A stretch of DNA of 64,000 nucleotides from Minisyncoccota bacterium (GCA_041658985.1 JBAZZC010000003.1:10540-74539); one strand, 5' to 3'. Positions 4,862 through 57,821 are shown, counted from the first letter of the stretch. Program-made: numbers and translations. Notes: generated from the sequence alone by a model not told the origin.

Positions 4862-4992
4862 AATCAAGAGTTTCTTTTTCATTGTATCTCTCAGAGAGAC
4901 ACGCATAAATTTCTGCTGAAATTTTGCTTGAGTTCGGCTCGACAGCCTCACTAGTCTCTCTTCAAGACACAACTCAACAAAACTCTTGATTT
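4862..4992 (+). promoter_or_regulatory. Conserved promoter/operator module, copy 1: TTGTAT-17-ATAAAT with a TCTCTCAGAGAGA palindrome in the spacer and a distal GTCTCTC
   Basis: About 85% identical to the reverse complement of 60462-60580, which lies upstream of recA. The -35 is at 4882-4887 and the -10 at 4905-4910. Short flanking inverted repeat AAATCAAGAGTTT / AAACTCTTGATTT. Confidence 0.55.
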
Positions 4993-5925: not shown

Positions 5926-5932
5926 AATATAA

Positions 5933-6066
5933 ATCCGCACACTAATTTTGCCATCGTTCTATTTTTTAAAACAAAACCAATACCATTTTTATTTTCTTAC
6001 TCAACTTCACACAAGTTAATATATTTGATTTAGAACTAAAAATAATGGCAAATTTAGTGTGCGGAT
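5933..6066 (+). repeat. R135 inverted-repeat element, copy B
   Basis: ATCCGCACACTAATTTTGCCAT ... ATGGCAAATTTAGTGTGCGGAT. It ends 22 nt before the tsaE start codon. Confidence 0.8.
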
Positions 6067-6088
6067 AAAATTATGCTAATATGTCTTT

Positions 6089-6523: not shown

Positions 6524-6531
6524 TGGTATAA
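6522..6531 (+). promoter_or_regulatory. Extended -10 element (TGGTATAAT) placing a transcription start at the first nucleotides of R135 copy C
   Basis: TG at 6524-6525 and TATAAT at 6527-6532, about 7 nt upstream of the element start at 6535. Confidence 0.35.
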
Positions 6532-6534
6532 TTC

Positions 6535-6669
6535 ATCCGCACACTAAATTTGGCATTATCTCATAGTTGCTATACATGTGGTTATGTCAAATTTAATAAT
6601 CATGTTTAAATATAAGTATGCATCTAGAATTTGAGATAATAGCAACGATGCCAAAATTAGTGTGCGGAT
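6535..6669 (+). repeat. R135 inverted-repeat element, copy C
   Basis: ATCCGCACACTAAATTTGGCAT ... ATGCCAAAATTAGTGTGCGGAT. It ends 3 nt before the polA ATG. Confidence 0.8.
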
Positions 6670-6672
6670 AAA

Positions 6673-9024
6673 ATGGCCAAACCTAAAAGCAAAAAAACAC
6701 TGGTACTTCTTGATGTGCATGCTATTTTGCATCGTGCCTATCACGCCCTTCCGGAGTTTGAATCAAGTAAAGGTGAGCCGACGGGAGCTCTTTATGGGCT
6801 TTGCACCATGCTTATCAAGCTGGTAAAAGATTTTAATCCAGACTACATTATTGCTTGTTATGATTTGCCAGAGCCGACCTTACGACACGAAGCATATGGA
6901 GAATATAAGGCTGGTCGTAAAAAAGCTGACGATAATTTAGTAAAGCAGTTGGAGAGGTCAAAGGACGTTTTCAAGGCCATGAATGTGCCGATGTATTCGT
7001 CCCCAGGATTTGAGGCAGACGATATGCTTGGCACCATTGTTGAGAGCTTAAAAAATAACAAAGATATAGATATTGTTATTGCTTCTGGAGATATGGACAC
7101 CATGCAACTTATAAATGGTGATAGGGTGCGGGTTTACACTTTAAAGAAGGGAATAAAGGACACCATTATTTATAACGAGAAAGCAGTGATGGAAAGATGG
7201 GGCTTTGCTCCAAAACTTTTAACCGACTACAAGGGGTTGAGGGGCGACCCGTCGGATAACATAATTGGTATTGTGGGTATTGGGGAAAAAACAGCAGAAG
7301 AATTAATTCAAAAATTTGGTTCGATAGAAAATATATATAAAGAAATTAAAAATCCAAAATCTAAAATTCACAAAGAAGTTAGACCGAGGGTTTTAGAACT
7401 ACTTAAAACGGGAGAGGAAGAAGCTTTGTTTAGCAAAATGCTGGCTACCATTCGAATTGATGCACCGATTTATTTTACAATGCCCACAAAAATTTGGCGG
7501 GATGATATAGATATGAAAAAAGTTCAAGATTTGTTTTCACAATTTGAATTTAGAATGCTGGGGCAGAAATTTGCCGAGAGTCTATCTCTGGACATGCCAG
7601 AAAGAGCAGAAATAATGGCTAATCCTAAGGACGTATTTGAAGTTGGACTATTGCTCTGGGTAGTGGATTCAAACAAAACAAATTCTACGTTAGATGATAT
7701 TTTGTCGTATACCAGAAGCGACAATCTATCTGATGCTCGGAAGGTTTTGGAGAAGACAATAAAAGACCAAGACCTATCTTTTGTTGTAGAAAAAATAGAA
7801 AAGCCACTTATGCCAATTGTTGAGACAATGAAAGAGGTTGGTATAAAAATAGACACCGAAAGACTAAAAATTTTATCAAAGAAATACCACACAGAATTAT
7901 CGTCACTTGAGAAAAAAATATGGAAAATTGTCGGTGAGGAATTTAATATTAATTCACCAAAACAATTAGGTGAGATGCTTTTTGTTAAAATGGGGCTTAA
8001 AGTAAAAAACCAAAAGAAAACAGCTAGTGGTGGATTTTCTACAAAGGAATCAGAGTTGGAAAAATTAAAGGAAGAGTATCCGATTGCTGGATTAATCCTG
8101 GAGTATCGTAAATTAGCAAAACTTCTTGGCACTTATATAGATACCATGCCAACCCAAGTAGATAAAGGTGATAGGTTACATGCTAATTTTTTACAAGCTG
8201 GGACAACCACTGGCAGAATGGCAAGTCAGGACCCGAATTTGCAAAACATTCCAAATAAAACAGAGCTTGGTCGAGAAATTCGTAAATCGTTTATTGCCGA
8301 AAAAGGCTGGAAACTTATTTCGTTTGATTATTCCCAGATAGAGCTTCGTATTGCTGCTTTCTTGTCGGGGGATAAGAAACTAATTGAGATTTTTAAAACA
8401 GGCCAGGATGTCCACACTGCTGTGGCTTGCGAAGTTTTCGGAGTCAAACCAGAAGAGGTAACAAAGGAGATGAGAATAAAAGCAAAAACCATAAATTTTG
8501 GTGTGATGTATGGAATGGGTGTAACTGCTCTACAGAAAAATATTAAAACAAACAGAGAGGAGGCCCAGGAATTTTTGAATGGATATTTTAATAAATTTTC
8601 TGGACTAGCTGAATATCTAGAAAAAGTAAAAAGGGAAACGGCCCAAAAGGGCTTTACCTCGACATTTTTTGGTCGCAGGAGATATTTTCCTGAAATCAAT
8701 TCCAGACTACCTTTTATGAAGGCCCAAGCAGAAAGAATGGCAGTCAATGCGCCGATACAGGGGACAGAGGCAGACATAATCAAAATGGCTATGATAGAAA
8801 TTGATAGATTTATAAAAAGTAAGAATTTAGAAAAGAACGTCCAATTGCTTTTGCAGGTTCATGATGAGTTGGTATACGAAGCAAAAGAAAATATAGTTAA
8901 TTCAATAACTCCAGAAATAAAAGTAATAATGGAAAATATAATTGACCCAAAAAAAATACACGGAATAGTTTGTGTAGCGAATAGCTCCTTTGGAGACAAT
9001 TGGGCAGAAATGATATCAGTATAA
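6673..9024 (+). CDS. polA: DNA polymerase I (5'-3' exonuclease plus polymerase domains; 3'-5' exonuclease region reduced)
   Basis: N-terminal FEN-like domain, a helix-hairpin-helix, and polymerase motifs A (DYSQIELR), B (RIKAKTINFGVMYG) and C (QVHDELV). 783 aa. Confidence 0.9.
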   Translation: MAKPKSKKTLVLLDVHAILHRAYHALPEFESSKGEPTGALYGLCTMLIKLVKDFNPDYIIACYDLPEPTLRHEAYGEYKAGRKKADDNLVKQLERSKDVFKAMNVPMYSSPGFEADDMLGTIVESLKNNKDIDIVIASGDMDTMQLINGDRVRVYTLKKGIKDTIIYNEKAVMERWGFAPKLLTDYKGLRGDPSDNIIGIVGIGEKTAEELIQKFGSIENIYKEIKNPKSKIHKEVRPRVLELLKTGEEEALFSKMLATIRIDAPIYFTMPTKIWRDDIDMKKVQDLFSQFEFRMLGQKFAESLSLDMPERAEIMANPKDVFEVGLLLWVVDSNKTNSTLDDILSYTRSDNLSDARKVLEKTIKDQDLSFVVEKIEKPLMPIVETMKEVGIKIDTERLKILSKKYHTELSSLEKKIWKIVGEEFNINSPKQLGEMLFVKMGLKVKNQKKTASGGFSTKESELEKLKEEYPIAGLILEYRKLAKLLGTYIDTMPTQVDKGDRLHANFLQAGTTTGRMASQDPNLQNIPNKTELGREIRKSFIAEKGWKLISFDYSQIELRIAAFLSGDKKLIEIFKTGQDVHTAVACEVFGVKPEEVTKEMRIKAKTINFGVMYGMGVTALQKNIKTNREEAQEFLNGYFNKFSGLAEYLEKVKRETAQKGFTSTFFGRRRYFPEINSRLPFMKAQAERMAVNAPIQGTEADIIKMAMIEIDRFIKSKNLEKNVQLLLQVHDELVYEAKENIVNSITPEIKVIMENIIDPKKIHGIVCVANSSFGDNWAEMISV

Positions 9025-10034: not shown

Positions 10035-10313
10035 CCGAACCTCTCCTTGGTGAGTTGTGACCTCTTTGATTAATGCTACTCAGAAGTTTAGAAAAAGCAA
10101 ATATAAGAATTAAACAGGGTGTGAATTGGACTTTCTTGAGATTTTTGTTATATTTTGTAGGTTAATAGAGTGTTTACGGTCAGGGATAATTTTCTTGCCG
10201 TCGCAAGAAAATTTCCACGACCCTGCCTCGCCTGTTTTGCATGGTAGCAAAACATGGCTGTGGCTCGCAAAAGCTTTTAATAAGTCAAAGCAGTTTGATT
10301 TATTAAAGCATTT

Positions 10314-10386
10314 GCGCCCGTAGCTCAGTCGGTAGAGCAGCTCCCTTTTAAGGAGATGGTCGCAGGTTCGATTCCTGCCGGGCGCA
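10314..10386 (+). tRNA. tRNA-Lys (anticodon TTT)
   Basis: Acceptor stem GCGCCCG/CGGGCGC, D-arm TAGCTCAGTCGGTAGAGC, anticodon loop CTTTTAA, T-arm GGTTCGATTCC. Confidence 0.85.
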
Positions 10387-10660
10387 CAATTAAAAAATCT
10401 CTGTGGTGGGGATTTTTTAATTGTGCGCCCGGAGCAAGAGTGTGGGGCACTCTTGCGTCAGGAATCGAACAGATTCACGGTTTACGCTCGCAGAAGCGAG
10501 TGTTGTGAATCTGCGTTTTAAATTCTGATGAGTGACGACGAATCAGAATTTAAAAAGATTCCGTCCAGAAAAGGTGTACTGACCATGTAATGGTCGATAT
10601 TCCTGCCGGGCGCACAAACCAAAAAATCTCCACTGCTGGAGATTTTTTGCACTAGTGTGC
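10387..10660. repeat. tRNA-Lys 3'-end duplications and hairpin repeats (scars of site-specific integration)
   Basis: A direct copy of the tRNA 3' end (CGATATTCCTGCCGGGCGCACAA) lies at 10595-10617. An inverted, interrupted copy lies near 10425-10475. Hairpins AAAAAATCTCC..GGAGATTTTTT are shared with repeats at 18566-18703 and 23259-23396. Confidence 0.55.
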
Positions 10661-10775
10661 TGACCGGAATACAATATAATTATAATAACTTTTAGTTGAG
10701 AGTTGAGTTTAGGTTTTATAAAAAGCAGGCACACAGAGATTCCCTGTGTGCCTGTTCAAGTGGTACTCTCCGACC

Positions 10776-12185
10776 TTACCCCAAGCGCTTGAGAAAAGCT
10801 GTTACTTCGGGCGGTAGCGGGAGCGATGGCGAAAAGACCGCTTCGTATTTGTAGTGACGGTAGGCGCCGAACACGCTCTGGAGTTCTTCTGGCGTGTGCG
10901 TCTCGTCTTGAACGACCTTCTTAATCGCCCCCAGAAGATGAGGGAAATCGACAGCAAGAGAGAAAAGCTTGTGAAGCACATCCACTTGCAGTCGATGTGG
11001 CAGACGAATTGGAGACCGGTAGTGATATGTCGAGAAGACACTCTCAACACTGTCAATCAAACCCTCCCGCAAACTCTGCTCCCCGAGCCGAGTCCCTGGA
11101 TAGGGGGTGAAAATTGAAACCCAGGCAAAATCAGGTTTGAGTTGAGTGTTGAACTCAACCGTCTCGTAGTCGTTGTCCAAGGTTGTGCCGGGAAAACCCA
11201 AAATATTCTGGGTAAAAACGGCAATACCCTGGGCGCCAAGCAACTTCCGCGCCAGAATCATCTGGGCTTTGCTAATCCGCCTGCCCAAAAGTTCTGTGCG
11301 CACCTTGTCATTACCAGCTTCTACACCCATGAAAATCTTCGCGCAACCTCCTTGCTTTAAGAGTGTAGCAACTTCTTCGTTTACCAAATCGGCCCGCAGG
11401 GAACAGATAAACGGCATGCCGATCTCAGCACGATACCTCGACACAAAGGTGCGAAGTCGAGGTCGATCAAGTACGAAAATGTCGTCGTGAAAATTGATGG
11501 TTTTCAGATTATGGTGCATCTTCAGTTCCACCAGCTCCGCCATCAAATTTTCCGCCGAGCGAGTTCTGACAAACTTCCCCTTGCTCATATAAAGAGTGCG
11601 CAAGGGTCTATTGGCGCAGTACGAACAGTCGTAGGGGCAACCTCGACTTGAAAAGACGCAATATTCCCCGTCAGCGGGAACGCGCTGAAAGAGATCTCGG
11701 TCTGGGAAAGGCAACGCATCGAGGTTCGCCACTAGTGGGCGCACTTCATTGCGATACACGACACCCTTCTCCTTGATCCAGAAATTGCGTATTTCTCTGA
11801 TCGATGAGTGGGTTTTGATCGCTTGGGCCAGCTCCACAACCGCCTCATCTCCCTCTCCGATTCCAATGACGTCCACCGCCTCATGTGTCAGAATCTCTGG
11901 CACAAGAGTCGGATGAAAACCACCAAAAACAGAGAGAAATGGGTGCCGCCGCTTGAGCCGACTGCACAATTCCAAACAATGCGTCTGTTCGCCCGTGATG
12001 ACGCTAAACATCACCACATCCGGAACGAATTCTTCGAATATTCGTTCGGTATCCTCTTGGCTGGACAGAGAGCCGCGGACGACAAACCCATGTTGCTTGA
12101 GTGCTGACGAGAGATACATCGCCCCAAGCGGTTCATCGACCAAAGCAGGACTAACGATCAAAATCCGCGGGTAATCTTTGTCCAT
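10776..12185 (-). CDS. B12-binding domain radical SAM protein (GC-rich, about 55% GC)
   Basis: CxxxCxxC motif (CPYDCSYCAN), an N-terminal cobalamin-binding-like domain, a GGAGG Shine-Dalgarno, and foreign base composition. Confidence 0.75.
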   Translation of the reverse strand: MDKDYPRILIVSPALVDEPLGAMYLSSALKQHGFVVRGSLSSQEDTERIFEEFVPDVVMFSVITGEQTHCLELCSRLKRRHPFLSVFGGFHPTLVPEILTHEAVDVIGIGEGDEAVVELAQAIKTHSSIREIRNFWIKEKGVVYRNEVRPLVANLDALPFPDRDLFQRVPADGEYCVFSSRGCPYDCSYCANRPLRTLYMSKGKFVRTRSAENLMAELVELKMHHNLKTINFHDDIFVLDRPRLRTFVSRYRAEIGMPFICSLRADLVNEEVATLLKQGGCAKIFMGVEAGNDKVRTELLGRRISKAQMILARKLLGAQGIAVFTQNILGFPGTTLDNDYETVEFNTQLKPDFAWVSIFTPYPGTRLGEQSLREGLIDSVESVFSTYHYRSPIRLPHRLQVDVLHKLFSLAVDFPHLLGAIKKVVQDETHTPEELQSVFGAYRHYKYEAVFSPSLPLPPEVTAFLKRLG

Positions 12186-15972: not shown

Positions 15973-16011
15973 ATTTCTCTATTTTACAACAAAATTACCC
16001 AAAATGCTTTA

Positions 16012-16146
16012 CCCGCACACCAATTTTGGCATTGTCTCTATATTGCCACATCAATAATTATATAAAGAACGAGTCATTTTCATCTAAGTAAGGTTGTTTA
16101 ATTATCTTGAGAGACTGGGCAATGATGCCAAATTTGGTGTTCGGGT
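16012..16146 (+). repeat. R135 inverted-repeat element, copy D
   Basis: CCCGCACACCAATTTTGGCAT ... ATGCCAAATTTGGTGTTCGGGT. It ends exactly at the mutM stop codon. Confidence 0.8.
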
Positions 16147-17093: not shown

Positions 17094-17681
17094 CTACGAT
17101 AGTAGTTTCATTGCCTTTTTTATTTTTTCCCCGGTACTTTTTTCACCCCCTGCTTTTTTCAGTGCTTCTCGCGCCTCACGTTCACCAAACCCCAGAGATT
17201 TTAGGGCCTCGAGAGCGTCAATGTCGTCGGAAAGGGAAGACCCATCACTTCCAACGTGTTCTAGCTTGTCTCGGAGTTCTACAACTATTTTCTCGGCATT
17301 TTTCTTGCCAACCCCGGAGACTTTTGTAAGATGTGCCGTGTCACCTGTAACTATTGCCTGGCGTAAGTTTTGGAGTGAAGCGATGTTTAAGATACCAAGG
17401 GCCGACTTTGGTCCAATGCCAGAAACGGTTAAGAGAAGCTCAAAAAAGTTAAGTTCCTCCCTCGTTCCAAATCCATATAAATCTAGGGCATTTTCTCTAA
17501 CAGCCAAATGTGTCCAAAATTCTGTCGTAGCTTGCGCCTTATATGATTTATTGCCTTCGCTTCGCTCCGGCGAGGACAGGGAGGCTGTATTTGTGTAGAT
17601 TTTATAACCAACACCAGAAACATCCAGTGTTATTGATTTTAAGTCTTGGTGTATTATCTTTCCTTTTAAATATCCAATCAT
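17094..17681 (-). CDS. ruvA: Holliday junction DNA helicase RuvA, carrying a 52-bp in-frame repeat insertion
   Basis: MIGYLKGKI start and HhH motifs (VSGIGPKSA). The loop sequence SPERSEGNKSYKAQATT is encoded by a segment shared with rlmI. Confidence 0.85.
   Translation of the reverse strand: MIGYLKGKIIHQDLKSITLDVSGVGYKIYTNTASLSSPERSEGNKSYKAQATTEFWTHLAVRENALDLYGFGTREELNFFELLLTVSGIGPKSALGILNIASLQNLRQAIVTGDTAHLTKVSGVGKKNAEKIVVELRDKLEHVGSDGSSLSDDIDALEALKSLGFGEREAREALKKAGGEKSTGEKIKKAMKLLS
17522..17573 (-). repeat. 52-bp GC-rich in-frame repeat (copy in ruvA)
   Basis: 50 of 52 bp identical to 34096-34147. Encodes SPERSEGNKSYKAQATT. Confidence 0.8.
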
Positions 17682-18137: not shown

Positions 18138-18558
18138 GTTAAACTTTGTTTATATGACCGGAAAGAGTAAAAGCGACAGAATTTTTAGTATTGATATATG
18201 GAGATATTTAGTAAACTTTTGGACACTGGTTATTTATATTATTGTTGTAGCTGACTTTTTTATGAGGAATAGTCTGGTGGAATTTCTTGGGCCAATCTGT
18301 GCTATCTACATTGCTCTTCTGGCTGTCTATACTACCCAAAAAGAGTTTGAACGATGGCATGATGAAAATATTGGCAAACATCCCGGGGAAGTATATGTAA
18401 TAGTTTGGACTGCCTTAATTGTTGTATTAATTGTTCTAGAAATTATTTACCAAGAGAGTTATGTATTACCAAGTGAAGCTTTTTCAACATATGTTGTAGT
18501 GATGGGTATATTAGCAATCTCAAGAAGGTCAAAGGCAAATTATTGTCGTATAAAATAA
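18136..18558 (+). CDS. Hypothetical membrane protein
   Basis: Three or four transmembrane helices; no recognisable family. Confidence 0.4.
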   Translation: MLNFVYMTGKSKSDRIFSIDIWRYLVNFWTLVIYIIVVADFFMRNSLVEFLGPICAIYIALLAVYTTQKEFERWHDENIGKHPGEVYVIVWTALIVVLIVLEIIYQESYVLPSEAFSTYVVVMGILAISRRSKANYCRIK

Positions 18559-18565
18559 AAACTTT

Positions 18566-18703
18566 GTGGTCAGGAATATTTTGCTCGTCGTCACTCGCAA
18601 AATTTCATGACCCTGACTCAGCTGTTTTTTCTGTTGAAAAAACATGCTTCCGTCCAGCACATAACAATAAAAATCTCCAGCAGTGGAGATTTTTATTGTT
18701 ATG
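18566..18703. repeat. tRNA-flanking hairpin repeat X1
   Basis: About 85% identical to 23259-23396. Contains a 22-bp-stem hairpin GCACATAACAATAAAAATCTCC..GGAGATTTTTATTGTTATGTGC abutting the tRNA 3' end. Confidence 0.7.
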
Positions 18704-18775
18704 TGCTCACGGCAGGAATCGAACCTGCATTTCTCCCTTCGCAGGGGAGTGTCTTATCCATTCAACGACGCGAGC
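18704..18775 (-). tRNA. tRNA-Arg (anticodon GCG as read; the exact anticodon needs checking)
   Basis: Acceptor GCTCGCG/CGTGAGC, anticodon stem CTCCC/GGGAG with loop CTGCGAA, T-arm GCAGGTTCGATTCCTGC. Confidence 0.65.
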
Positions 18776-18802
18776 TATAAAAAAAAGAGTAACACAAAGA
18801 TA

Positions 18803-19258
18803 TTAGAATCCAAAGTAAAGCAATAGTTTTTCGAGTAACGGCTCAGCGTGTTCCTCTTCTAGCAGATGTTGTGAGAGGGCCTCACGAATCTGCTCTGGTT
18901 CAACGTCTTCTATAAGAATCATCACGAAAGGCATAAGTACCTTTTTAGATTTTAGTAATATCCTAGGGTAAGAATCACGAGTCTCAATCCAAAACGACTC
19001 AAGTTCTTTATATGGATAATTATTTTTTCCTACAGCAATCCCAGCCTCGCCGATGTCTATAGTGATTATTTCTGGTTTTTTTGAAGCAAAAAGAGAGAGA
19101 GTAAAAGAAGAAACAATTATAAGAATGGCAAAAATCAAGTTGTTTAATATTATTGAAATTAAGGCGATTGATACAGTAACAATACCAACGGTCCAGTACC
19201 AGTCGGGGGTTTTTTCTTTGTGTAAGTATTCAATCGTTTCCCAGGATAAATTTTGCAT
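18803..19258 (-). CDS. Hypothetical membrane protein
   Basis: The ORF in the track extends into tRNA-Ser. The start was moved to the internal Met (MQNLSWET). Confidence 0.4.
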   Translation of the reverse strand: MQNLSWETIEYLHKEKTPDWYWTVGIVTVSIALISIILNNLIFAILIIVSSFTLSLFASKKPEIITIDIGEAGIAVGKNNYPYKELESFWIETRDSYPRILLKSKKVLMPFVMILIEDVEPEQIREALSQHLLEEEHAEPLLEKLLLYFGF

Positions 19259-19893: not shown

Positions 19894-20277
19894 ATGAAAT
19901 ATCTTGGTATTGATTATGGTTCAAAACGAATTGGCCTGGCGGTTTCTGATGAGGCTGGTAGTTTTGCTTTTCCCTTGAAAGTTTTAAGTAATTCAGAAAA
20001 TCTAATTAAAGAATTGGTTGAAATATGTAGGGAAAACAATGTGGAAGGGGTTGTGGTGGGGGAGTCAAAAGATTATCTTCAAAAAGACAATGAGATTATG
20101 GATGAAATTTTGCCATTTGTTGAGGATTTAAAAAATGTACTTAACCTGCCAATATATATGCACCCAGAATTTTTGACTTCCCAGGAGGCCGAGAGATTGC
20201 AGGGTAAAAACGATATGCATGATGCTAGTGCAGCGGCTCTTATTTTAAAAAGTTATTTGGATTCATCCGCACACTAA
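19894..20277 (+). CDS. ruvX: Putative pre-16S rRNA nuclease / Holliday junction resolvase-like protein YqgF (RuvX)
   Basis: MKYLGIDYGSKRIGLAVSD N-terminus typical of YqgF. Confidence 0.8.
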   Translation: MKYLGIDYGSKRIGLAVSDEAGSFAFPLKVLSNSENLIKELVEICRENNVEGVVVGESKDYLQKDNEIMDEILPFVEDLKNVLNLPIYMHPEFLTSQEAERLQGKNDMHDASAAALILKSYLDSSAH

Positions 20278-20395
20278 GTTTAGCATCGTTGCCATTTTTT
20301 GTGGTTTGGCTAACGTTCAATTTTTTGTAATATCCCGTGTATTATAGTTGTATGTGTTGTGGCAACAAAAATAATGCTAAACTTAGTGTGCGGAT
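20265..20395 (+). repeat. R135 inverted-repeat element, copy E
   Basis: ATCCGCACACTAAGTTTAGCAT ... ATGCTAAACTTAGTGTGCGGAT. The left arm overlaps the ruvX stop codon. Confidence 0.8.
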
Positions 20396-20419
20396 AAAAA
20401 AATAATAAAAATTAATTTT

Positions 20420-23252: not shown

Positions 23253-23258
23253 ACTTAT

Positions 23259-23396
23259 GTGGTCAGGAATATTTTTGTTTCCGTCAAAACAAAAATTTCA
23301 CGACCCTGACTCGGCTGTTTTTTCTACTGAAAAAACATGCCTTCGTCTAGCACATAACAACAAAAATCTCCAGCAGTGGAGATTTTTGTTGTTATG
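23259..23396. repeat. tRNA-flanking hairpin repeat X2
   Basis: About 85% identical to 18566-18703. Same hairpin abutting the 3' end of tRNA-Arg(TCT). Confidence 0.7.
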
Positions 23397-23468
23397 TGCT
23401 CTCGGTTGGAATCGAACCAACATCAAAGCCTTAGAAGAGCTCTACTCTATCCATTGAGCTACGAGAGC
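23397..23468 (-). tRNA. tRNA-Arg (anticodon TCT)
   Basis: Acceptor GCTCTCG/CGAGAGC, anticodon loop CTTCTAA, T-arm GTTGGTTCGATTCCAAC. Confidence 0.75.
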
Positions 23469-26410: not shown

Positions 26411-26517
26411 AAAATAAAAAGCATCCGAAAAATAATATCTTTTGAATAGTTATGTTTTATAAAATATTTTTATAGGTCAGTCGGTACTGGTTTATATTTA
26501 ATAGGTCTATTTTTCTT

Positions 26518-26539
26518 ATCATACGATATATCGTATGAT
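26518..26539. promoter_or_regulatory. Perfect 22-bp palindrome ATCATACGATATATCGTATGAT, 9 nt upstream of the HTH gene
   Basis: Self-complementary. Identical copy at 26937-26958. The core TACGATATATCGTA also occurs at 59159-59184. Confidence 0.6.
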
Positions 26540-26548
26540 ATAAATACT

Positions 26549-26935
26549 ATGCCTCACATATCAAAACAATTTTTAGAAAAGAAGAAGTTTCAAGATATCC
26601 ATAGCCAGTTATTTAAAGTTATTAATATGCTTGTGAGAGAAGGAAAGACAACGGCGATTTTAAATGAACTTTTTACAAAGACAGAAAAATTAATGCTTGC
26701 AAAAAGACTAGCTATTATATTTATGTTGGATCAAAAAGAATCATCTTATGCCATATCAAATATTCTTAAGGTAAGCCAATCAACTGTTGCACTAATGTCA
26801 CTTAAACAAGAAAATGGGAAATATTCGGATATAATAAAAGAAATGAGGAAGCAAAATAATTTTTGGATACAACTTCAGAAAATTATTCCACCACGTGTTG
26901 GCAGAAATCGTTTTAAGAATTTTCTTCAGTTCTAA
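26549..26935 (+). CDS. TrpR/YerC-YecD-like helix-turn-helix DNA-binding protein
   Basis: 128 aa with HTH-like region KRLAIIFML ... SYAISNILKVSQSTV. Exactly bracketed by identical palindromes. Confidence 0.45.
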   Translation: MPHISKQFLEKKKFQDIHSQLFKVINMLVREGKTTAILNELFTKTEKLMLAKRLAIIFMLDQKESSYAISNILKVSQSTVALMSLKQENGKYSDIIKEMRKQNNFWIQLQKIIPPRVGRNRFKNFLQF

Positions 26936-26936
26936 T

Positions 26937-26958
26937 ATCATACGATATATCGTATGAT
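26937..26958. promoter_or_regulatory. Second copy of the 22-bp perfect palindrome, 2 nt after the stop codon
   Basis: ATCATACGATATATCGTATGAT. Confidence 0.6.
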
Positions 26959-27073
26959 ATTATATGTATAAAGGAATAAACGACATGTCTATATTAAAGA
27001 GAAAAAAGTTGAAAATCAATGAATCTTTAAGTACTATTGGAATATCTCGGGTTTGAGAGTGTCGTCATTTAAA

Positions 27074-33726: not shown

Positions 33727-34647
33727 ATGATAGATAATATTTTAATCACTGAAAAATCAGTTGACTACGAACTGCTCGATAGTGGCGAGGGGGAAAAATT
33801 AGAGAGATATGGAAAGGTTGTTCTTTCTCGTCCAGACCCACAAGCCATCTGGTCAAAGTCATTACCTGAATCAGAATGGAAAAAAGCTGATGCCGTCTTC
33901 AGTCGTGTCGGTACAACAGGGAAATGGGAAGTAGTAGCTAGTAGTAAGCATCTAGCATCTAAAGGGGGGTTTTGGAACATTCAATTAGATAACTTAACTT
34001 TTCAGTTACAACTTTTACCTTCAAAACATATTGGAGTTTTTTCAGAACAGAGTGAACAGTGGAAATGGCTAGAGGAAAAAATTGTTTCCCGTATTTCGCC
34101 GGAGCGAAGCGAAGGCAACAAAACATATAAGGCGCAAGCTACGACAGTTCTGAATTTATTTGGTTACACGGGTGGTGCCAGTTTGGCTTGCGCCAGGGCT
34201 GGAGCAGAAGTTTGTCATGTAGATAGTTCAGAATTTGCTGTTGATTTGGCTCATACTAATATGAAACTTTCTGGCCTTTCGGATAAAAAAATAAGATTTA
34301 TTGTTGATGATGTCAGAAAATTTGTGGAAAGAGAAATAAAAAGAAAGAAAAAATACGACGTAATTATTTTAGACCCACCTATTTATGGTAAGGGCACGAA
34401 AAAAGAAGTGTGGAAGGTTGAAGATGACTTGTTGCCTTTTTTGCTTCACCTAAAAAATATTATTTCAGATAATCCATTAGCTATCGTTCTAAATGGTTAT
34501 GCTTCAAATTATTCTAGCATCACCTACGTTCAATTACTTGAAACTTTAAAATTAAAAGGCAAAATTACTCACGGTGAATTGGCTATAAAGGAATCATCAG
34601 CTGGTAGGCTCTTGCCTTGCGGCATATTTGCTCGTTGGGAACAGTAA
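33727..34647 (+). CDS. Class I SAM-dependent rRNA methyltransferase (RlmI/YccW-like), carrying a 52-bp in-frame repeat insertion
   Basis: PUA-like N-terminus, SAM-binding motif LNLFGYTGGASLA, and ILDPP. The ISPERSEGNKTYKAQATT segment is encoded by the repeat shared with ruvA. Confidence 0.75.
   Translation: MIDNILITEKSVDYELLDSGEGEKLERYGKVVLSRPDPQAIWSKSLPESEWKKADAVFSRVGTTGKWEVVASSKHLASKGGFWNIQLDNLTFQLQLLPSKHIGVFSEQSEQWKWLEEKIVSRISPERSEGNKTYKAQATTVLNLFGYTGGASLACARAGAEVCHVDSSEFAVDLAHTNMKLSGLSDKKIRFIVDDVRKFVEREIKRKKKYDVIILDPPIYGKGTKKEVWKVEDDLLPFLLHLKNIISDNPLAIVLNGYASNYSSITYVQLLETLKLKGKITHGELAIKESSAGRLLPCGIFARWEQ
34096..34147 (+). repeat. 52-bp GC-rich in-frame repeat (copy in the rlmI-like gene)
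   Basis: TCGCCGGAGCGAAGCGAAGGCAACAAAACATATAAGGCGCAAGCTACGACAG; 50 of 52 bp identical to the reverse complement of 17522-17573. Confidence 0.8.
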
Positions 34648-36032: not shown

Positions 36033-36067
36033 ATTGTGTTATAATGACAGTATTATTAAATTAAATT

Positions 36068-36203
36068 CATCCGCACACTAACATTAGTATTGTGTCTTAC
36101 GTTGCTCTACTGGGTATTAAACAGAGTAATGAAGGATAAAATGATGAAGTAAACAAATCAAGATTAGACACAATTGCAACGATACCAATGTTAGTGTGCG
36201 GAT
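36068..36203 (+). repeat. R135 inverted-repeat element, copy F
   Basis: ATCCGCACACTAACATTAGTAT ... ATACCAATGTTAGTGTGCGGAT. The interior is related to copy A. It ends 8 nt before the next ATG. Confidence 0.8.
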
Positions 36204-36211
36204 AAAATTTT

Positions 36212-44999: not shown

Positions 45000-45178
45000 T
45001 AAGCAGTAAAGAGACCAATCACCTCTATGGCTTTGGGAAGAAAGCAGAAATGCAAATAGAACCCAACGGGTGGCCCGTTATAGCCGTAAAGAGAAGTAAG
45101 CAAGGTGGTACCACGAGAAACTCGTCCTTGCATAGCAAGTGTTTGCTGTGTAGGGACGGGTTTTTTATTACAAAAAAT
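45000..45178 (+). promoter_or_regulatory. T-box riboswitch leader with an AUC (Ile) specifier upstream of ileS
   Basis: T-box sequence AAGGTGGTACCACGAG (45102-45117). A 16-bp terminator stem plus GGTTTTTT follows at 45122-45168. The specifier loop ACCAATCAC carries AUC followed by a purine, in the AGAG/CTCT stem at 45010-45030. Confidence 0.55.
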
Positions 45179-48100
45179 ATGGAAAAAGAAAAAATAGAAA
45201 AAAGTGAAGTTGCACTGAAAGAAGAAAAAATCCTGGAGTTTTGGGAGAAAAGTGAAATTTTCAAAAAAACCCTAGAAAAAGAGGCACCAAAAGGGGAGTT
45301 TGTCTTTTACGATGGGCCTCCATTTGCCACTGGTTTGCCTCATCAGGGGACATTGCTTGGTTCCATTGCTAAGGACCTAATTCCTCGCTACAAAACGATG
45401 CGAGGCTACAGTGTGCGTCGTAGATGGGGTTGGGATTGTCACGGTTTACCTATAGAAAATCTTGTAGAGAAGAAACTTGGCCTCAAGCATAAAAAAGATA
45501 TTGAAGAAATGGGTATAGAAAAATTTAACGAAGAATGTCGCAGTCAAGTGTTGACATATGTTCATGATTGGAAAGTGTACATTGACCGCGTGGCTCGTTG
45601 GGTTGATTTTGAGGGCTCTTACAAAACCATGGATTCTAGTTATACCGAAAGTATTTGGTGGGCACTCAAACAAATGAATGACAAAGGCTTGCTTTACGAA
45701 GGCAGAAAAGTTCTTTTGTATTGTCCAAGATGCGAGACTCCTCTTTCTAAAGCAGAGATTGCTATGGACAACTCATATAAAGATATAACGGAAGAGGCGG
45801 TGACAATAAAGTTTAAAATAAAAAATCCAGAAAAACATAAATTACCCCAGAACACATATTTACTTGCATGGACAACAACCCCGTGGACATTACCTGGAAA
45901 CGTTGCACTTGCAGTTGGTAATGATATTGAATATCAAGTAATGAAAAAGGGGCAAGAAACCTATGTTGTTTCTACACAGGTATGGAAACAGGGAATCTTG
46001 GGAGAGTTTGGCAACCTAGCAATAGGAGATGTTCGTAAGGGGGCTGATTTGGTTGGTTTGGAATACGAACCACTTTACGAAATACCTGTTGTAAAAAATA
46101 GTGGCAAAAAAGCTTGGTATGTTACCTCGGCTGATTTTGTTAATACAGAAGAGGGAACGGGTATTGTGCATACGGCGGTAATTTATGGAGAGGATGACTA
46201 TCAACTTGGTCTAAAAGTTGATTTACCAATGGTTCCACTGCTTTTGCCAAATGGAGAGTTTAATAATGAGGCTCCGGAATTTATTCGTGGAATGTATGTG
46301 AAAAAGGCCGAGAGATATATAAAAGAAGATTTGGAAAAAAGAGACTTGCTTTTCAGTAAGACCATGAACACTCACTCATACCCTCATTGTTATCGTTGCG
46401 AAACCCCCCTTATATACAACGCTCTCTCAAGCTGGTTTATTAATATTCAAAAAATAAAAAAACAAGTTATTGATTTGAATGAAAATATAAACTGGGTTCC
46501 GGACCATCTTAAACATGGACGTTTTCTAGATATTGCTCAAAATGCTCCGGACTGGACAATAAGCAGAAATCGCTATTGGGCATCGCCACTGCCAATCTGG
46601 AAAGATGACAAGGGTAAATATATTGTTATTGGAAGTATTTCTGAACTTAAGGATTACATTGGTCGTCGCAATAATTATTTTCTCTTACGTCATGGAGAAT
46701 CGGAAGGAAATGCAAAGGGTGTTATAAGTTGTAAGAAAGATGGTAAAGACTCACTGACTTCTCTTGGTAGAGAAGAATCTCTCTCTTCTGTAAAAGAACT
46801 CAAAAATAAAAAAATAGACATTATTATTTCATCGCCTTTTGTAAGGACACGTGAAACTGCCGAAATTATTGCCGAAGAGATGGGGATTCCAAAAGAGGAA
46901 ATTATCTATGATGATTTGCTTGGTGAGATTTCTTGTGAAAAGTACGATGGGGAATTGTGGACAGGTTTTAATTTCAGGAAAAAAGAAGAAGGGGTTGAAA
47001 CTCCACGCCAGGTTCTCTCGCGAACAATGAAAGTTATGTATGGATTAGATAAAAAATATGAAAGCAAAAACATTTTAATTATTGGACACGGGGGACCACT
47101 TAGAATAATCAAACTTGCGTCAAGTGGTTTAGCAGAGGAAGATATCATGAAGCATTATTATGATGACCCACCAAGAAACGCAAAAACGATTGACTGTGAT
47201 TTTGTGGCATTGCCTCACAATGGGGCATATGAAATTGATTTACACAGGCCATACATTGATGAGGTTGTGCTACATGACAAAGACGGTTCTATTCTCAAGC
47301 GAATACCAGAGGTTATTGACTGTTGGGTTGAATCTGGGTCAATGCCTTTTGCCGAATATAATTATCCGTATTCAAATAAAGAAGAATTTGAGAAAAGAGC
47401 TCCAGGAGATTTTGTGGCTGAGTATATAGCCCAAACCAGAACTTGGTTTTACTACATGCATGTCATCTCTACGGCTCTTTTTGGACGGGAATCTTTTAAA
47501 AATGTTTTGACTACCGGAAATATTCAAGCCAGTGACGGAAGTAAAATGAGTAAGTCAAAGAGTAACTACACAGACCCATTGCTTCTCATGAATAAATACG
47601 GTGCTGACGCTCTGCGTTACTACATGATGACTTCTGTTGTGATGCAGGCAGAGGATTTAAACTTTAAAAATGATGATGTCAAAGAAGTTAACCAAAGAAT
47701 GTTAAATATCTTGCGAAATGTTTTATCTTTCTATGAAATGTATAAGACGGATTTTACTGGAATCCCAAGCAAAAATAATGTTTTGGATAAATGGATTTGT
47801 TCTAGGTTGGCAGTTTTGCACAAAGAAGTAACTGAGGGTCTGGAGAAGTATGACACAATCCGTTCTGGGCGGCCGATAAGACTTTTTATAGAAGATTTAT
47901 CAACTTGGTATTTGCGTCGCTCAAGAGACAGATTCAAATCAGAAAACTTAGAGGAGAGAAAAGAGGTCTCAGAATGTACCGCTTTTATTTTGGTAGAACT
48001 TGCAAAAATAATGGCTCCGTTTACGCCATATATTGCCGAGGAAATTTATCAGGGTGTTAAAGGAAAAAATCATAAAGAAAGTGTACATTTAGAAAATTGG

Positions 48101-48604
48101 ACAGAAAGCATGGAGGATTTTTTAGACAGGGAACTTATTGTTCAAATGCAAAAAGTCAGGGAGGTGGTTACCCAAGCCTTAGATTTACGTCAGAAAGCTG
48201 GGTACAGTGTTAGACAACCTCTGCCATCTCTTGTTGTGTCGCAAAATTTTTCTAAAGAACTATTAGATATTATTGCTGATGAGGTCAATGTAAAAGAAAT
48301 AAAGGTCTTGGAAGGAAGTGAGGTAAGATTGGACACAACCTTAACCGAAGAATTGAAAAACGAAGGAATTGCTCGTAGTGTTATTCGTGGTATCCAGGAT
48401 GTAAGAAAAAATGAAGGTCTTAATCCAGGCGAGAGAATAAAGCTGATTATTTGTGCAGATGAAAAAATAAAATCTGTGATTGTTTCTTTTGAGATTTTAA
48501 TCAAATCTCCAACACAGGTGGTGGAGATAATATACTCAAACGAAAAACAAACTCACGCCATTTCTTTGGGTTCCGGCGAGATGACGGTAACAGTATCTAG
48601 ATAA
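45179..48604 (+). CDS. ileS: Isoleucine--tRNA ligase with an inserted histidine-phosphatase (PGAM-like) domain
   Basis: PHQGT (a HIGH variant), WTTTPWTLPGN, and KMSKS. An internal segment of ~190 aa carries the LLRHGESEGN and IIGHGGPL catalytic motifs of the histidine phosphatase superfamily. Start moved to MEKEKIEK, downstream of the T-box. Confidence 0.85.
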   Translation: MEKEKIEKSEVALKEEKILEFWEKSEIFKKTLEKEAPKGEFVFYDGPPFATGLPHQGTLLGSIAKDLIPRYKTMRGYSVRRRWGWDCHGLPIENLVEKKLGLKHKKDIEEMGIEKFNEECRSQVLTYVHDWKVYIDRVARWVDFEGSYKTMDSSYTESIWWALKQMNDKGLLYEGRKVLLYCPRCETPLSKAEIAMDNSYKDITEEAVTIKFKIKNPEKHKLPQNTYLLAWTTTPWTLPGNVALAVGNDIEYQVMKKGQETYVVSTQVWKQGILGEFGNLAIGDVRKGADLVGLEYEPLYEIPVVKNSGKKAWYVTSADFVNTEEGTGIVHTAVIYGEDDYQLGLKVDLPMVPLLLPNGEFNNEAPEFIRGMYVKKAERYIKEDLEKRDLLFSKTMNTHSYPHCYRCETPLIYNALSSWFINIQKIKKQVIDLNENINWVPDHLKHGRFLDIAQNAPDWTISRNRYWASPLPIWKDDKGKYIVIGSISELKDYIGRRNNYFLLRHGESEGNAKGVISCKKDGKDSLTSLGREESLSSVKELKNKKIDIIISSPFVRTRETAEIIAEEMGIPKEEIIYDDLLGEISCEKYDGELWTGFNFRKKEEGVETPRQVLSRTMKVMYGLDKKYESKNILIIGHGGPLRIIKLASSGLAEEDIMKHYYDDPPRNAKTIDCDFVALPHNGAYEIDLHRPYIDEVVLHDKDGSILKRIPEVIDCWVESGSMPFAEYNYPYSNKEEFEKRAPGDFVAEYIAQTRTWFYYMHVISTALFGRESFKNVLTTGNIQASDGSKMSKSKSNYTDPLLLMNKYGADALRYYMMTSVVMQAEDLNFKNDDVKEVNQRMLNILRNVLSFYEMYKTDFTGIPSKNNVLDKWICSRLAVLHKEVTEGLEKYDTIRSGRPIRLFIEDLSTWYLRRSRDRFKSENLEERKEVSECTAFILVELAKIMAPFTPYIAEEIYQGVKGKNHKESVHLENWTESMEDFLDRELIVQMQKVREVVTQALDLRQKAGYSVRQPLPSLVVSQNFSKELLDIIADEVNVKEIKVLEGSEVRLDTTLTEELKNEGIARSVIRGIQDVRKNEGLNPGERIKLIICADEKIKSVIVSFEILIKSPTQVVEIIYSNEKQTHAISLGSGEMTVTVSR

Positions 48605-51272: not shown

Positions 51273-52661
51273 ATGACTGAAAACAAGAATGACAGAATGG
51301 AAAAGATAGTCTCGCTTTGCAAGAGACGTGGTTTTGTTTATCCATCCTCAGAAATATATGGTGGTTTTGCCGGTGTGTATGATTTTGGACCAATGGGAGT
51401 TGAGCTTGAAAATAATCTCAAAACACATTGGTGGAAATGGATGGTTCATAAAAGACAAGATGTTGTTGGACTAGACTCTAGTATTTTTATGAGCCCACAA
51501 ATTTGGGAGGCCTCTGGTCATACTAAGGGTTTTTCTGACCCAATGGCTGAGTGTAAGGAATGCAATACCAGAATAAGAGTCGATAAGGTACTAAACGATT
51601 TAGGAATTTTTGCTGATGAAAAAATGTCCGAAGAAGAAATCAACAAGCTTTTTGATGAGAATAAATCAAAAATTAAATGTCCTAATTGTAAAAAGCAAAA
51701 TTTTACAAAAGTCAGGAAGTTTAATGTGTTGGTAAAGTCCAATCTTGGTGATTTTACTGAATCCAATTCTAGTCCGTCATATTTGAGAGGAGAAACTTGC
51801 CAAGGGATATATGTAAATTTCAAAAACGTTCTTGATTCACAGCATCCAAAATTGCCTTTTGGTATTGCTCAGATTGGTAAAGCATTTAGGAATGAAATTT
51901 CTGCAAGGCAGTTTCTTTTTAGACTCAGGGAGTTTGAACAGATGGAAATGGAATATTTTACAAGGCCAAAGGATGAAATGGGTGAATATGAAAAATTAAA
52001 AGAATATAGATGGAAGGCAATTTTAAGTCTGGGAATTAAAGAAGAAAATTTGCGATGGAAAAAACACGATAACTTGGTTTTTTACGCAAAAGAAGCATAT
52101 GACATAGAATACAACTTTCCATGGGGATTTGATGAACTAGAGGGGATTCATGCTCGTGGAAATTACGATTTAACACAACATTCTAGTGGGTCAGGAAAAG
52201 AATTGGTCTATCAAGACGAAGAAACAAATGAAAAATTTATTCCGCACATTGTTGAGTCGTCTGGTGGTGTCAGTCGGTTATTTTTTGCAATTCTTTGTGA
52301 CGCTTATCATGAAGACGAAATGGGCGGAGAGACTAGGATTCTTCTAAAACTAAAACCAAGTATTGCACCAATTAAGGTTGCTGTTTTTCCACTTCTAAAA
52401 AACAAACCAGAACTTGTAAATAAAGCCAAGGAAATTTTTGGTTTATTAAATGAAGAAATTCAACCGGTAACATTTGACGATAATGGAAACATAGGCAAAC
52501 GATATCGTAGACAAGATGAGATTGGCACACCATTCTGTGTGACGATTGATTTTGAAACAATTGAAAAAGATGCTGGAGTAACTGTTCGTAATCGTGACAC
52601 TGGAGAACAAGAAAGGGTTCCTGTTATTGAGCTAGTTTCATATCTTAAATCTAAAATATAA
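51273..52661 (+). CDS. glyQS: Glycine--tRNA ligase (dimeric alpha2 type) with a Zn-ribbon insertion
   Basis: Class II motifs (FRNEISARQFLFRLREFEQMEME), a C-terminal anticodon-binding domain, and a CxxC...CxxC insert. Confidence 0.85.
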   Translation: MTENKNDRMEKIVSLCKRRGFVYPSSEIYGGFAGVYDFGPMGVELENNLKTHWWKWMVHKRQDVVGLDSSIFMSPQIWEASGHTKGFSDPMAECKECNTRIRVDKVLNDLGIFADEKMSEEEINKLFDENKSKIKCPNCKKQNFTKVRKFNVLVKSNLGDFTESNSSPSYLRGETCQGIYVNFKNVLDSQHPKLPFGIAQIGKAFRNEISARQFLFRLREFEQMEMEYFTRPKDEMGEYEKLKEYRWKAILSLGIKEENLRWKKHDNLVFYAKEAYDIEYNFPWGFDELEGIHARGNYDLTQHSSGSGKELVYQDEETNEKFIPHIVESSGGVSRLFFAILCDAYHEDEMGGETRILLKLKPSIAPIKVAVFPLLKNKPELVNKAKEIFGLLNEEIQPVTFDDNGNIGKRYRRQDEIGTPFCVTIDFETIEKDAGVTVRNRDTGEQERVPVIELVSYLKSKI

Positions 52662-52793
52662 ATCCGAACACTAACTTTGGCATCGTTGCACATCTCCACA
52701 CGTAGATGTAAACGATAGTCTAGATGTAGATTCATATTTTGTATTAATACTCACTTAGCAACAAGGAGATAATGCCAAAGTTAGTGTGCGGAT
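52662..52793 (+). repeat. R135 inverted-repeat element, copy G
   Basis: ATCCGAACACTAACTTTGGCAT ... ATGCCAAAGTTAGTGTGCGGAT. It begins 1 nt after the glyQS stop codon. Confidence 0.8.
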
Positions 52794-52963
52794 AAGTTTT
52801 TACAAAACAAGATTTAGGTGGTACTATTGGCCTATGGATCCCGTTAGAAATCCCTTGGTTGATTTGTAAAAAATGGATTTTAACGAGAAACCTAATTATT
52901 AAGATATATTAACTAATTAAATGCGGAAAGGCTTTAGTAAAAGGCTTTCCTATTTCTAACGGG

Positions 52964-57585: not shown

Positions 57586-57740
57586 CTCTGGTCTTTTTGT
57601 CCGATTTCAGCGTTGGAATTTCAAAAATTCTCGTCACCGTACGTTTAGTACGGCTCCTCGCATTTTTTCATTCCGCCTTGAACTCGAACAAAAATCCTCA
57701 GAGTTTCATTTCTCGACCTATCAAAACTTGCGTGGTCGTA

Positions 57741-57795: not shown

Positions 57796-57821
57796 ATACG
57801 ACGAGCTAAAGTTTTGAAAAA

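Follow-up and report, generated by a model that had tools for sequence, protein, structure and literature searches.

Repeats beside the tRNA genes of the window

The stretch of DNA analysed here (the window, 64,000 nucleotides in length) comes from a metagenomic contig and is an ordinary segment of a CPR chromosome, with genes for RuvB, a PilB-like ATPase, PolA, HolA, Fpg, RuvA, S20, PilM, UppS, several aminoacyl-tRNA synthetases, RecA and FtsK, and it is syntenic with a locus from a Parcubacteria-labelled MAG (L003) and another from a Saccharibacteria-labelled MAG (L004). Three of its seven tRNA genes are followed by a small, repeated module; no such module was found at the tRNA-Ser, -Val, -Leu and -His genes of the window. 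In what follows, E designates the ~97-nt core of the module, R1 is a covariance model made from 79 distinct metagenomic copies of that core, and H1 is the long hairpin preceding it. The relevant features are as follows:

10178-10316, minus strand: fourth copy of the module, antisense, just upstream of tRNA-Lys (R1 84.0 bits, E = 1.6e-18)
10314-10387, plus strand: tRNA-Lys(TTT), with elements on both sides (ARAGORN; Rfam tRNA)
10380-10472, plus strand: interrupted long hairpin after tRNA-Lys (sequence and fold)
10461-10557, plus strand: degenerate E core of the T-loop ("class B") type, after tRNA-Lys (R1 40.2 bits, E = 6.5e-8; tip loop GAGTGACGACGA)
10557-10599, plus strand: decayed copy of the tRNA T-loop/3' part (GATTCCGTCCAG), then conserved module M2 (AAAAGGTGTACTGACCATGTAATGGTCGAT) (sequence)
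10600-10670, plus strand: second H1, after a tRNA-Lys direct repeat (exact repeat of the tRNA-Lys 3' end at 10600-10616; hairpin core 10622-10647)
18568-18655, minus strand: E core copy 1, after tRNA-Arg(GCG) (R1 match 18568-18665, 89.1 bits, E = 9e-20), with arms P2 (18616-18653) and P3 (18568-18615), ending ..CCTGACC, then ACA (18565-18567)
18656-18707, minus strand: hairpin H1 copy 1, a 52-nt palindrome (palindrome search and fold), in the order target-end segment a1 (18702-18707), spacer, core AAAAATCTCC-ACTGCT-GGAGATTTTT (18669-18694), complementary spacer, and segment a' TGTGCT (18656-18661)
18703-18775, minus strand: tRNA-Arg(GCG) (ARAGORN; Rfam tRNA, 62 bits), with last bases AGCACA (18702-18707) equal to a1
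23261-23348, minus strand: E core copy 2, after tRNA-Arg(TCT) (R1 match 23261-23358, 75.6 bits, E = 2e-16)
23349-23400, minus strand: hairpin H1 copy 2, with the same 26-nt core (23362-23387) and a compensated T>C / A>G change in the spacer
23396-23468, minus strand: tRNA-Arg(TCT) (ARAGORN; Rfam tRNA)

A sequence-only reading of the window had described hairpin-rich repeats of ~85% identity at 18566-18703 and 23259-23396, and an ungapped alignment places the figure at 119 of 138 positions (86%); identity is 69% for the adjoining tRNA-Arg genes and 53% for the next 60 nt past the modules. The same reading gave both modules a common start and a hairpin fused to the tRNA, and both details hold up. 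On the plus strand, each module opens with (G)TGGTCAGGAATA, and each ends with the 52-nt palindrome, at 18656-18707 and 23349-23400, respectively, whose outer stem takes in the last bases of the tRNA (AGCACA) and pairs them to TGTGCT. Both modules lie on the minus strand, directly 3' of their tRNA, and the segment a' at 18656-18661 is an inverted copy of the tRNA-Arg(GCG) end. The folds are far more stable than those of shuffled sequences (z = -7.7, -10.4 and -12.2), and the differences between the two Arg copies are compensatory in two hairpins, including changes in the E core of copy 1 relative to copy 2. Judging from synteny, the site of copy 2 is orthologous to that of an E element following tRNA-Arg(TCT) in L004.

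The 22-nt hairpin core, AAATCTCC-N6-GGAGATTT, occurs exactly three times in the 64-kb window (0.04 expected), so that its reported recurrence at tRNA-Lys stands. The "inverted" orientation ascribed to that copy applies to window coordinates only, since tRNA-Lys is encoded on the plus strand and all three first-noted copies face the same way with respect to their tRNA. The motif GAGTGACGACGA is found twice in the window, at 10530 and 18585 (0.04 expected). Finally, the spurious ORFs sharing the NKNLQQWRF motif are indeed present in all three places (18543-18806, 23257-23457 and 10543-10734) and represent read-through of the hairpin into the tRNA genes.

The tRNA-Lys complex

The tRNA-Lys locus is of the T-loop type and has a more elaborate arrangement, with M2 and a further tRNA-end repeat that bears its own hairpin. 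The interrupted hairpin consists of the tRNA 3' end and a terminator-like core (10380-10430), followed by an inserted hairpin B (10434-10456) and then by an inverted copy of the T arm, GTCAGGAATCGAAC (10457-10472). Further downstream, the second H1 has a core identical to that of the Arg copies, followed by a decayed inverted copy, TGTGCTGACCGGAAT. Two features of the locus were missing from the sequence-only reading. One is a direct duplication of the tRNA-Lys 3' end, with TTCCTGCCGGGCGCACA present at both 10372 and 10600. The other is the fourth, antisense copy, with an E core at 10178-10265 (R1 match 10178-10275) and an a' segment of GCTTTTGCG (10266-10274); its own hairpin (loop ACTGCT) extends into the antisense of the tRNA-Lys 5' end.

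The M2 module (AAAGGTGTAC-stem-loop-stem-CGAT, window 10568-10599) was also detected in seven other loci (L002, L004, L050, L088, L090, L101 and L124). It ends in a T-loop-like sequence and is positioned between copies of tRNA 3' ends, and it may represent another T-loop-targeting element. Convergent on the repeat complex is a B12-binding radical-SAM gene (10776-12185) in a stretch of 48% GC, as compared to ~36% elsewhere, and this gene may have been horizontally acquired.

A conserved fold on the sense strand

On the tRNA-sense strand, the consensus of the 79 copies reads a' - [A/G]G-N-CGGAGCG - stem - AGCA - stem - CG-CGAG-N'-C - GGGGTCGCG-GAAAT-xxxx - GAGYGRCGRCGA - xxxx-ATTATC-NGTGAC-C, and it forms two covarying hairpin arms, P2 and P3. 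P2 is composed of a helix (G-N-C/G-N'-C), a bulged G with tandem G.A/A.G pairs, a GCG/CGC segment and a variable stem capped by AGCA. Its N:N' pair (alignment columns 13-54) occurs in all four Watson-Crick types, with CG in 35 copies, AU in 20, GC in 19 and UA in four. P3 is a long hairpin with one bulged A, and its tip has G.A, A.G, G-C and Y-R pairs around a 4-nt loop. The invariance of GAAAT, the tip loop and ATTATC in P3 is partly imposed by the pattern used for retrieval; copies found by other routes (window copy 2 and those of L004 and L010) vary in these motifs.

Support for this structure is considerable. Across 79 copies, the 32-pair model leaves 93.7% of cells paired, versus 78.3% in shuffled alignments and 31-49% when partners are slid, and 430 double-sided changes were observed versus 114 expected; none of 500 shuffles reached the observed values. 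RNAalifold independently recovered 25 pairs, 17 of which show compensatory changes. E is, by its compensatory pairing, a conserved, structured single-stranded element, whether RNA or single-stranded DNA. Moreover, G.T pairs far outnumber A.C pairs (146 versus 17), placing the structure on the sense strand of the upstream gene. A copy of the T-loop type forms a three-way junction, whether folded as RNA or as DNA, in which a helix P1 (a':a2, where a2 is a direct copy of the gene end lying beyond E) closes P2 and P3.

Several known motifs were considered and set aside. A kink-turn is suggested by the tandem G.A (65 of 79 copies) and A.G (79 of 79) pairs, but the bulge is a single G rather than 3 nt. 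By inspection, the hammerhead, k-turn and group II domain V do not fit, as tandem G.A is the only one of their core features present. For a kissing contact of the H1 loop (CUGC) with the P2 loop (GCAG), co-occurrence is weak (20/17/17/43, odds ratio ~3), and the closing pair of the P2 loop varies.

Flanking copies of the target gene end

Each E core is preceded by a long hairpin in which the 3' end of the upstream gene (a1) pairs with an inverted copy of itself (a') that stops precisely where E begins. When the 126 nt upstream were searched for the complement of the last 10 nt before E, a match of at least 9/10 was found in 49 of 97 distinct copies and in none of the control. E is often followed by a2. 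Two types can be recognized. In the 3'-end type, which includes both Arg copies of the window, a' complements approximately positions 70-75 of the tRNA together with the trailer, E ends with GACC-ACA, and the repeat is limited to CACA. In the T-loop type, a' complements tRNA positions 54 to 65-73, and a direct tRNA repeat of 17-40 nt, starting from C56, follows E at ~25 loci. E elements are thus accompanied by a direct repeat of the 3' part of their target, as is characteristic of tRNA-targeting integrative elements; in the window this includes TTCCTGCCGGGCGCACA at tRNA-Lys, and the Arg copies repeat CACA only.

Whether the target is a tRNA, rplL or TopA-like gene, the junction obeys one rule: a2 comes directly after the terminal ...GAC of E. 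When complemented, a' gives the two bases left of the crossover and then the first bases of a. E is found at two discrete distances from the tRNA 3' end.

In this genome, the H1 core (UCUCC-ACUGCU-GGAGA followed by UUUUU) fits an intrinsic terminator by eye. It is absent from a consensus terminator scan, perhaps because its T-run belongs to the extended stem. A terminating role, one of the possibilities first raised for these modules, is plausible for the inner hairpin of this genome only; the hairpins of many relatives have no U-tract.

A family of CPR bacteria

Far from being peculiar to the window, the family is abundant in relatives, contrary to the outcome (no conservation there) that the sequence-only reading had named as its refutation. 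R1 recovered four copies in the 64-kb window and more than 140 copies in ~100 CPR loci, and a pattern describing the third hairpin (GAAAT-N4-8-GAGYGRCGRCGA-N4-8-ATTATC) occurs in at least 120 metagenomic loci. A scan for the hairpin core in one genome per species yielded ten loci, all labelled Patescibacteria (Saccharibacteria, Paceibacteria, Parcubacteria, Taylorbacteria and Minisyncoccia); in eight of the ten, the hairpin has an identical layout and immediately follows the 3' end of a tRNA, and R1 matches E beside the hairpin or tRNA in at least eight.

Most copies are situated downstream of a same-strand tRNA, with others after tmRNA or the 3' ends of protein genes. Among the matches listed, a same-strand tRNA ends within 400 nt upstream in 78 of 127 instances, representing 34 anticodons, and tRNAs within 400 nt upstream of E number 87 on the same strand versus four on the opposite strand. 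A profile search provided 22 further copies outside the pattern selection, 19 of which follow a same-strand tRNA. Targets other than tRNA genes include tmRNA, the final 19 nt of an rplL-like gene and, at three loci, ~70 nt at the end of a TopA-like zinc-ribbon gene. In some contigs, E follows every tRNA.

No match to E was found in 2.9 million viral contigs, 50,697 phage records and 72,556 plasmids, and a phage, plasmid or viral origin was rejected on these grounds. In Rfam 15, searched at the gathering threshold, only the tRNAs of the window were matched; in E-value mode, the segments 18400-18800 and 10250-10750 returned only tRNA and chance miRNA-like hairpins far below the cut-offs, and a canonical copy (L097, 8330-8600) gave no match at E <= 5. 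A literature search likewise found no description of the family, and the sole related item concerned group I introns at position 35/36 of tRNAs in Patescibacteria (PMC13011429). E elements are, in short, a widespread family lacking a catalogue entry in Rfam, and the modules of the window are its local tip.

Turnover and signs of integration

Arrangements suggestive of repeated insertion were encountered at several loci. One (L011) contains tandem units of 137 nt, and two others (L087 and L047) contain nested arrays; in L087 the youngest-looking copy adjoins the tRNA, and in L047 three successive tRNAs are each associated with an E variant. The syntenic locus L004 has E at its tRNA-Val gene, and the window has none there.

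A further sign comes from the TopA-like gene of L097, L022 and L041. Its intact ORF ends with ...KTIPERCSNKNCPNHNPHKLAKK, and a displaced copy situated right after E reads KTIPERCSNKTCPNHNPHKLAKK; the two encode the same ~22 residues, and ~25% of the nucleotides differ, mostly at synonymous sites. This pattern implies that both ends evolved as coding sequence in different lineages, and therefore that the element has moved horizontally with a gene end of its own, as is known for elements integrating into tRNA genes or icd. Sequence comparison thus indicates that E elements bring their own copy of the target gene end, with the diverged replacement end seen in these three related loci only.

One gene-carrying unit was found. 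In L016 (3018-4060), a unit of 842 bp with a 183-aa ORF, located after E, lies between identical hairpin-a'-E modules that also have identical 55-nt right flanks. No large cargo was found between tRNA and E, and neither a free or circular form nor a precisely empty site in a close relative was observed.

The two Arg copies of the window are 85% identical, and the orthologous Arg(TCT) copies of the window and L004 are 65% identical, indicating exchange within the genome. Copies within a genome are usually as divergent as those of different genomes (~66%), with the fold retained, and a general within-genome burst was rejected on this basis, the exact tandem duplicates and the Arg pair of the window excepted. 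The Arg(TCT) copy has an orthologously placed counterpart in a relative, where the proteins on either side are 34-88% identical. Such long retention, together with compensatory change, implies that selection acts on each copy, as would be expected for an RNA useful to the host or for an element on whose integrity the host depends.

The elements encode no integrase or recombinase and do not have room for a gene, and the 64-kb window yielded no gene for a recombinase, transposase or reverse transcriptase. When 2345 ORFs from 130 loci were clustered, no recurrent recombinase ORF was detected near E; a linked protein of any other kind was also rejected, as the largest clusters are housekeeping (TrmH, Ddl, RuvA, RbfA, IF-2, S20 and Fpg). 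Regulation of the downstream gene was discarded for lack of orientation bias, with 60 co-directional versus 42 convergent neighbours.

Relation to known elements

E elements have much in common with islands and prophages that use tyrosine integrases, such as e14 or phage 21 at icd. Like these, they insert at the T loop or the extreme 3' end, and like tRNA/tmRNA islands they bring a replacement 3' end, leave the displaced end as a direct repeat, form arrays at a single tRNA, and also use tmRNA and the 3' ends of protein genes. In contrast to islands and prophages, an E element measures ~130-250 bp, possesses no integrase or other gene, includes an inverted copy of the crossover-proximal target along with a 97-nt folded core, and serves dozens of target tRNAs within one family.

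A second resemblance is to integron attC sites and to the folded, single-stranded attP of CTX phage, an element that relies on the Xer recombinases of its host. Here, too, there is a strand-specific fold with bulged bases and no linear duplex site, the element occurs at gene 3' ends, and an inverted repeat can restore a duplex resembling the target; the E unit with an ORF even recalls an integron cassette. Unlike attC, however, E has no IntI nearby, its consensus has no R''/R' core sites (GTTRRRY; RYYYAAC...GTTRRRY), and it consists of two arms plus a stem derived from the target, where attC is a single hairpin. It is also aimed at tRNA genes and not at attI or dif, and recombination, as known for attC and CTX, is inferred for E. 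With no core sites, two arms and no integrase in the window, identity with attC was rejected.

The IS200/IS605 elements and their miniature derivatives, together with the IS110 bridge RNA, offer a third comparison, as they have single-strand hairpins at their ends, can exist as non-autonomous copies, and contain an internal sequence that complements the target across the cleavage site in a guide-like manner. The guide of E differs from that of IS200/IS605 in being 8-21 nt long and copied from the target rather than 4 nt, and the target end is duplicated. No TnpA, TnpB or DEDD recombinase was found in the 64-kb window, nor any Rfam match to the associated RNAs.

Like MITEs, REP/BIME and Correia-type repeats, E elements are small, multi-copy, hairpin-rich and intergenic, generate spurious ORFs, and are often terminator-like. 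They differ from all of these in having neither terminal inverted repeats of their own nor a fixed, short target-site duplication, and in the strict tie of their orientation and position to gene 3' ends. Classification as a MITE was rejected, as the two ends of E read AG-N-CGGAG... and ...ATTATCNGTGAC, and the inverted and direct copies on its flanks are specific to the target and vary in length. Finally, class C group II introns that insert after intrinsic terminators share with E a location immediately 3' of a hairpin on the transcribed strand; E is, by comparison, only 97 nt long, lacking domain V/VI and a reverse transcriptase. No group II intron turned up when Patescibacteria genomes were surveyed (PMC13011429).

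A probable mobile element and how it might move

Taken at a probability of roughly 0.55, the best explanation is that the modules are very small (~130-250 bp), gene-less, non-autonomous, site-specific integrative elements of CPR/Patescibacteria. They are best filed as a variant of the tRNA-targeting integrative elements with a structured core outside Rfam. The sequence-only reading had raised remnants of a tRNA-targeting mobile element as one option; direct repeats, arrays, non-tRNA targets and replacement ends favour the mobile element, and its description as a decayed remnant does not hold, as the family to which the window modules belong consists of complete, compact members with a conserved fold backed by covariation. 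Counting against integration, this explanation gives no account of how a1 and a' come to match more than 34 different tRNAs.

On this explanation, one element has four parts, read on the sense strand of its target gene. The first, a1, is a replacement for the 3' end of the target, reaching from the T loop (position 56) or approximately position 72 to the gene end, or covering up to ~70 nt in the case of a protein gene. The second is a hairpin, often terminator-like and represented in this genome by AAAAATCTCC-ACTGCT-GGAGATTTTT, and the third is a', which inverts the initial 6-19 nt of a1 together with 2 nt on the left side of the crossover. The fourth is the E core, and a2, the displaced end of the resident gene, comes directly after its ...GAC. 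A possible mechanism can be modelled on the folded attP of CTX phage, the attC sites of integrons and the guide pairing of IS608. Movement would presumably occur by site-specific recombination at the E|a junction, with a recombinase supplied in trans, and the folded sense strand, either as single-stranded DNA or as a transcript, would serve as the recombination module.

In the integrated state, the a1:a' helix would span the left junction and hold it 2 bp before E begins, and the right junction would fall at the base of P3, so that both ends, or the target and a', could meet at the E junction. A single-strand exchange would then release a small circle [a1-hairpin-a'-E], and the gene would be resealed with a2. 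Within the circle, a':a1 would close E as stem P1 and mimic the duplex target. Targeting of the sense strand in highly transcribed genes would make sense if transcription exposes the target as single-stranded DNA or provides the transcript itself. A 2-bp crossover of the serine-recombinase type was rejected, as the 2 nt differ at the two junctions (TT versus AC).

A bolder version, rather doubtful at present, is that E performs a programmable single-strand recombination of a new kind, in which a' acts as a guide that pairs across the cleavage site (2 nt plus 6-19 nt), and a host-encoded or unlinked recombinase, drawn in by the E junction, exchanges the gene's 3' end for the copy borne by the element. 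It is just as doubtful, if tempting, to suggest that this amounts to a gene-less, guide-directed system of integrative cassettes, specific to CPR bacteria and directed at the sense strand of highly transcribed genes.

Alternative explanations

A serious rival, with a probability of about one in four, is that E instead serves the host as a structured RNA acting in cis within the 3' trailers of tRNA transcripts and some others. Possible roles would be 3'-end processing, which the sequence-only reading had also raised, trailer removal, termination or insulation, or the production of a tRNA-like by-product RNA, in which RNase P, RNase Z or the CCA-adding enzyme would take P1 for an acceptor/T-arm stack; the gene-end repeats would be either functional or by-products of recombination. 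The fold does lie on the transcribed sense strand, it shows strong covariation and tandem G.A/A.G motifs typical of RNA, and E is co-oriented with the upstream tRNA. With so many relatives lacking a U-tract in their hairpins, E would be co-transcribed. Persistence at an orthologous site with the structure intact at ~65% identity, and the contigs in which every tRNA has an E, are also in accord with a host function, and long retention under structural constraint suits a host-useful element as well as an active, selfish one. Nonetheless, only three of the seven tRNAs in the window have the module, one copy is antisense and upstream of its tRNA, and others follow protein genes along with diverged duplicates of the coding end. 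Tandem and nested arrays and the ORF-carrying unit are hard to explain by function alone, and the inner hairpin of this genome resembles a terminator placed ahead of E. The two discrete distances between E and the tRNA end provide no fixed geometry for a processing site, and a ribozyme that cleaves the tRNA 3' end was rejected because of them.

Considerably less probable is the proposal that the modules are scars, namely the attachment-site-proximal ends of larger integrative elements or prophages that entered tRNA T loops or 3' ends by means of their own tyrosine integrases and were later deleted, leaving an element end and a displaced tRNA fragment. Williams is said to have described in 2002 that integrase-borne islands use the T-loop and 3'-end sublocations of tRNAs and leave direct repeats of the 3' part, and both traits are matched by E. 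Arrays of tRNA fragments downstream of a single tRNA, and the GC-rich, foreign-looking gene that adjoins the tRNA-Lys complex, could be interpreted in the same way. Yet no large element lies between the repeats in more than 100 loci (the sole ORF-carrying case is 842 bp), the viral, phage and plasmid collections contain no matches, the size is uniformly compact, and the fold is maintained by compensatory evolution, which is unlike a scar.

The idea that the modules are ordinary bidirectional terminators or chance hairpins, alike by accident, is invited by the A-tract/GC stem/loop/stem/T-tract of the inner hairpin between convergent genes of the window, but it is refuted by 86% identity over 138 nt with unrelated flanks, by R1 matches of E = 1e-16 to 1e-20, and by hundreds of homologues with covariation.

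Other repeats and features of the window

A second, unrelated family of repeats is represented by seven MITE-like copies of ~140 bp (2699-2839, 5926-6071, 6528-6674, 16004-16140, 20258-20400, 36063-36208 and 52655-52798), with terminal inverted repeats of ~35 bp (ATCCGCACACTAAnTTTGGCATCGTTGC ... GCAACGATGCCAAAnTTAGTGTGCGGAT) and a variable centre. A 52-nt segment, present at 17522-17573 and 34096-34147 with 96% complementarity, lies in frame within two unrelated genes, where it adds SPERSEGNK(S/T)YKAQATT to RuvA (approximately residues 37-53) and to a SAM-methyltransferase (approximately residues 123-140); it resembles the mobile in-frame insertions known as Rickettsia palindromic elements. 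A 110-nt repeat (4872-4981 and 60468-60577, 85% identical), whose two copies are inverted relative to each other, lies upstream of both the pilB-like gene and recA and holds the hairpin AAATTTCTGCTGAAATTT, with a CTGC loop motif as in the tRNA-linked H1.

A 25-nt palindrome, TATCATACGATATATCGTATGATAT, occurs on both sides of a 128-aa ORF (26549-26935), at 26517-26541 and 26936-26960, with a third, diverged copy near recA (59160-59184), and it looks like an operator. Between convergent genes beside the EF-P gene is a perfect palindrome of 32+32 nt with a 4-nt spacer (57735-57802). Finally, an isoleucyl-tRNA synthetase-like ORF of 1184 aa (45050-48604) has an inserted His_Phos_1 (histidine-phosphatase) domain at residues 544-697.

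Significance

CPR/Patescibacteria have genomes of ~1 Mb that are thought to be poor in mobile elements, and the presence of four E copies in 64 kb, or of E after every tRNA in some contigs, contrasts with that view. Under either explanation, R1 allows annotators to mask spurious ORFs and tRNA-fragment calls in CPR genomes, and E provides a concrete target for experiments with cultivated Saccharibacteria. If E is a cis-acting RNA, a widespread structured RNA linked to tRNA biogenesis would have gone uncatalogued in a major and poorly understood branch of bacteria. If it is a mobile element, it would be an integration module of compact size and without genes, which restores any gene that it enters and has an apparent target-matched guide, making it of interest for mobile-element biology and as a possible scaffold for programmable recombination.
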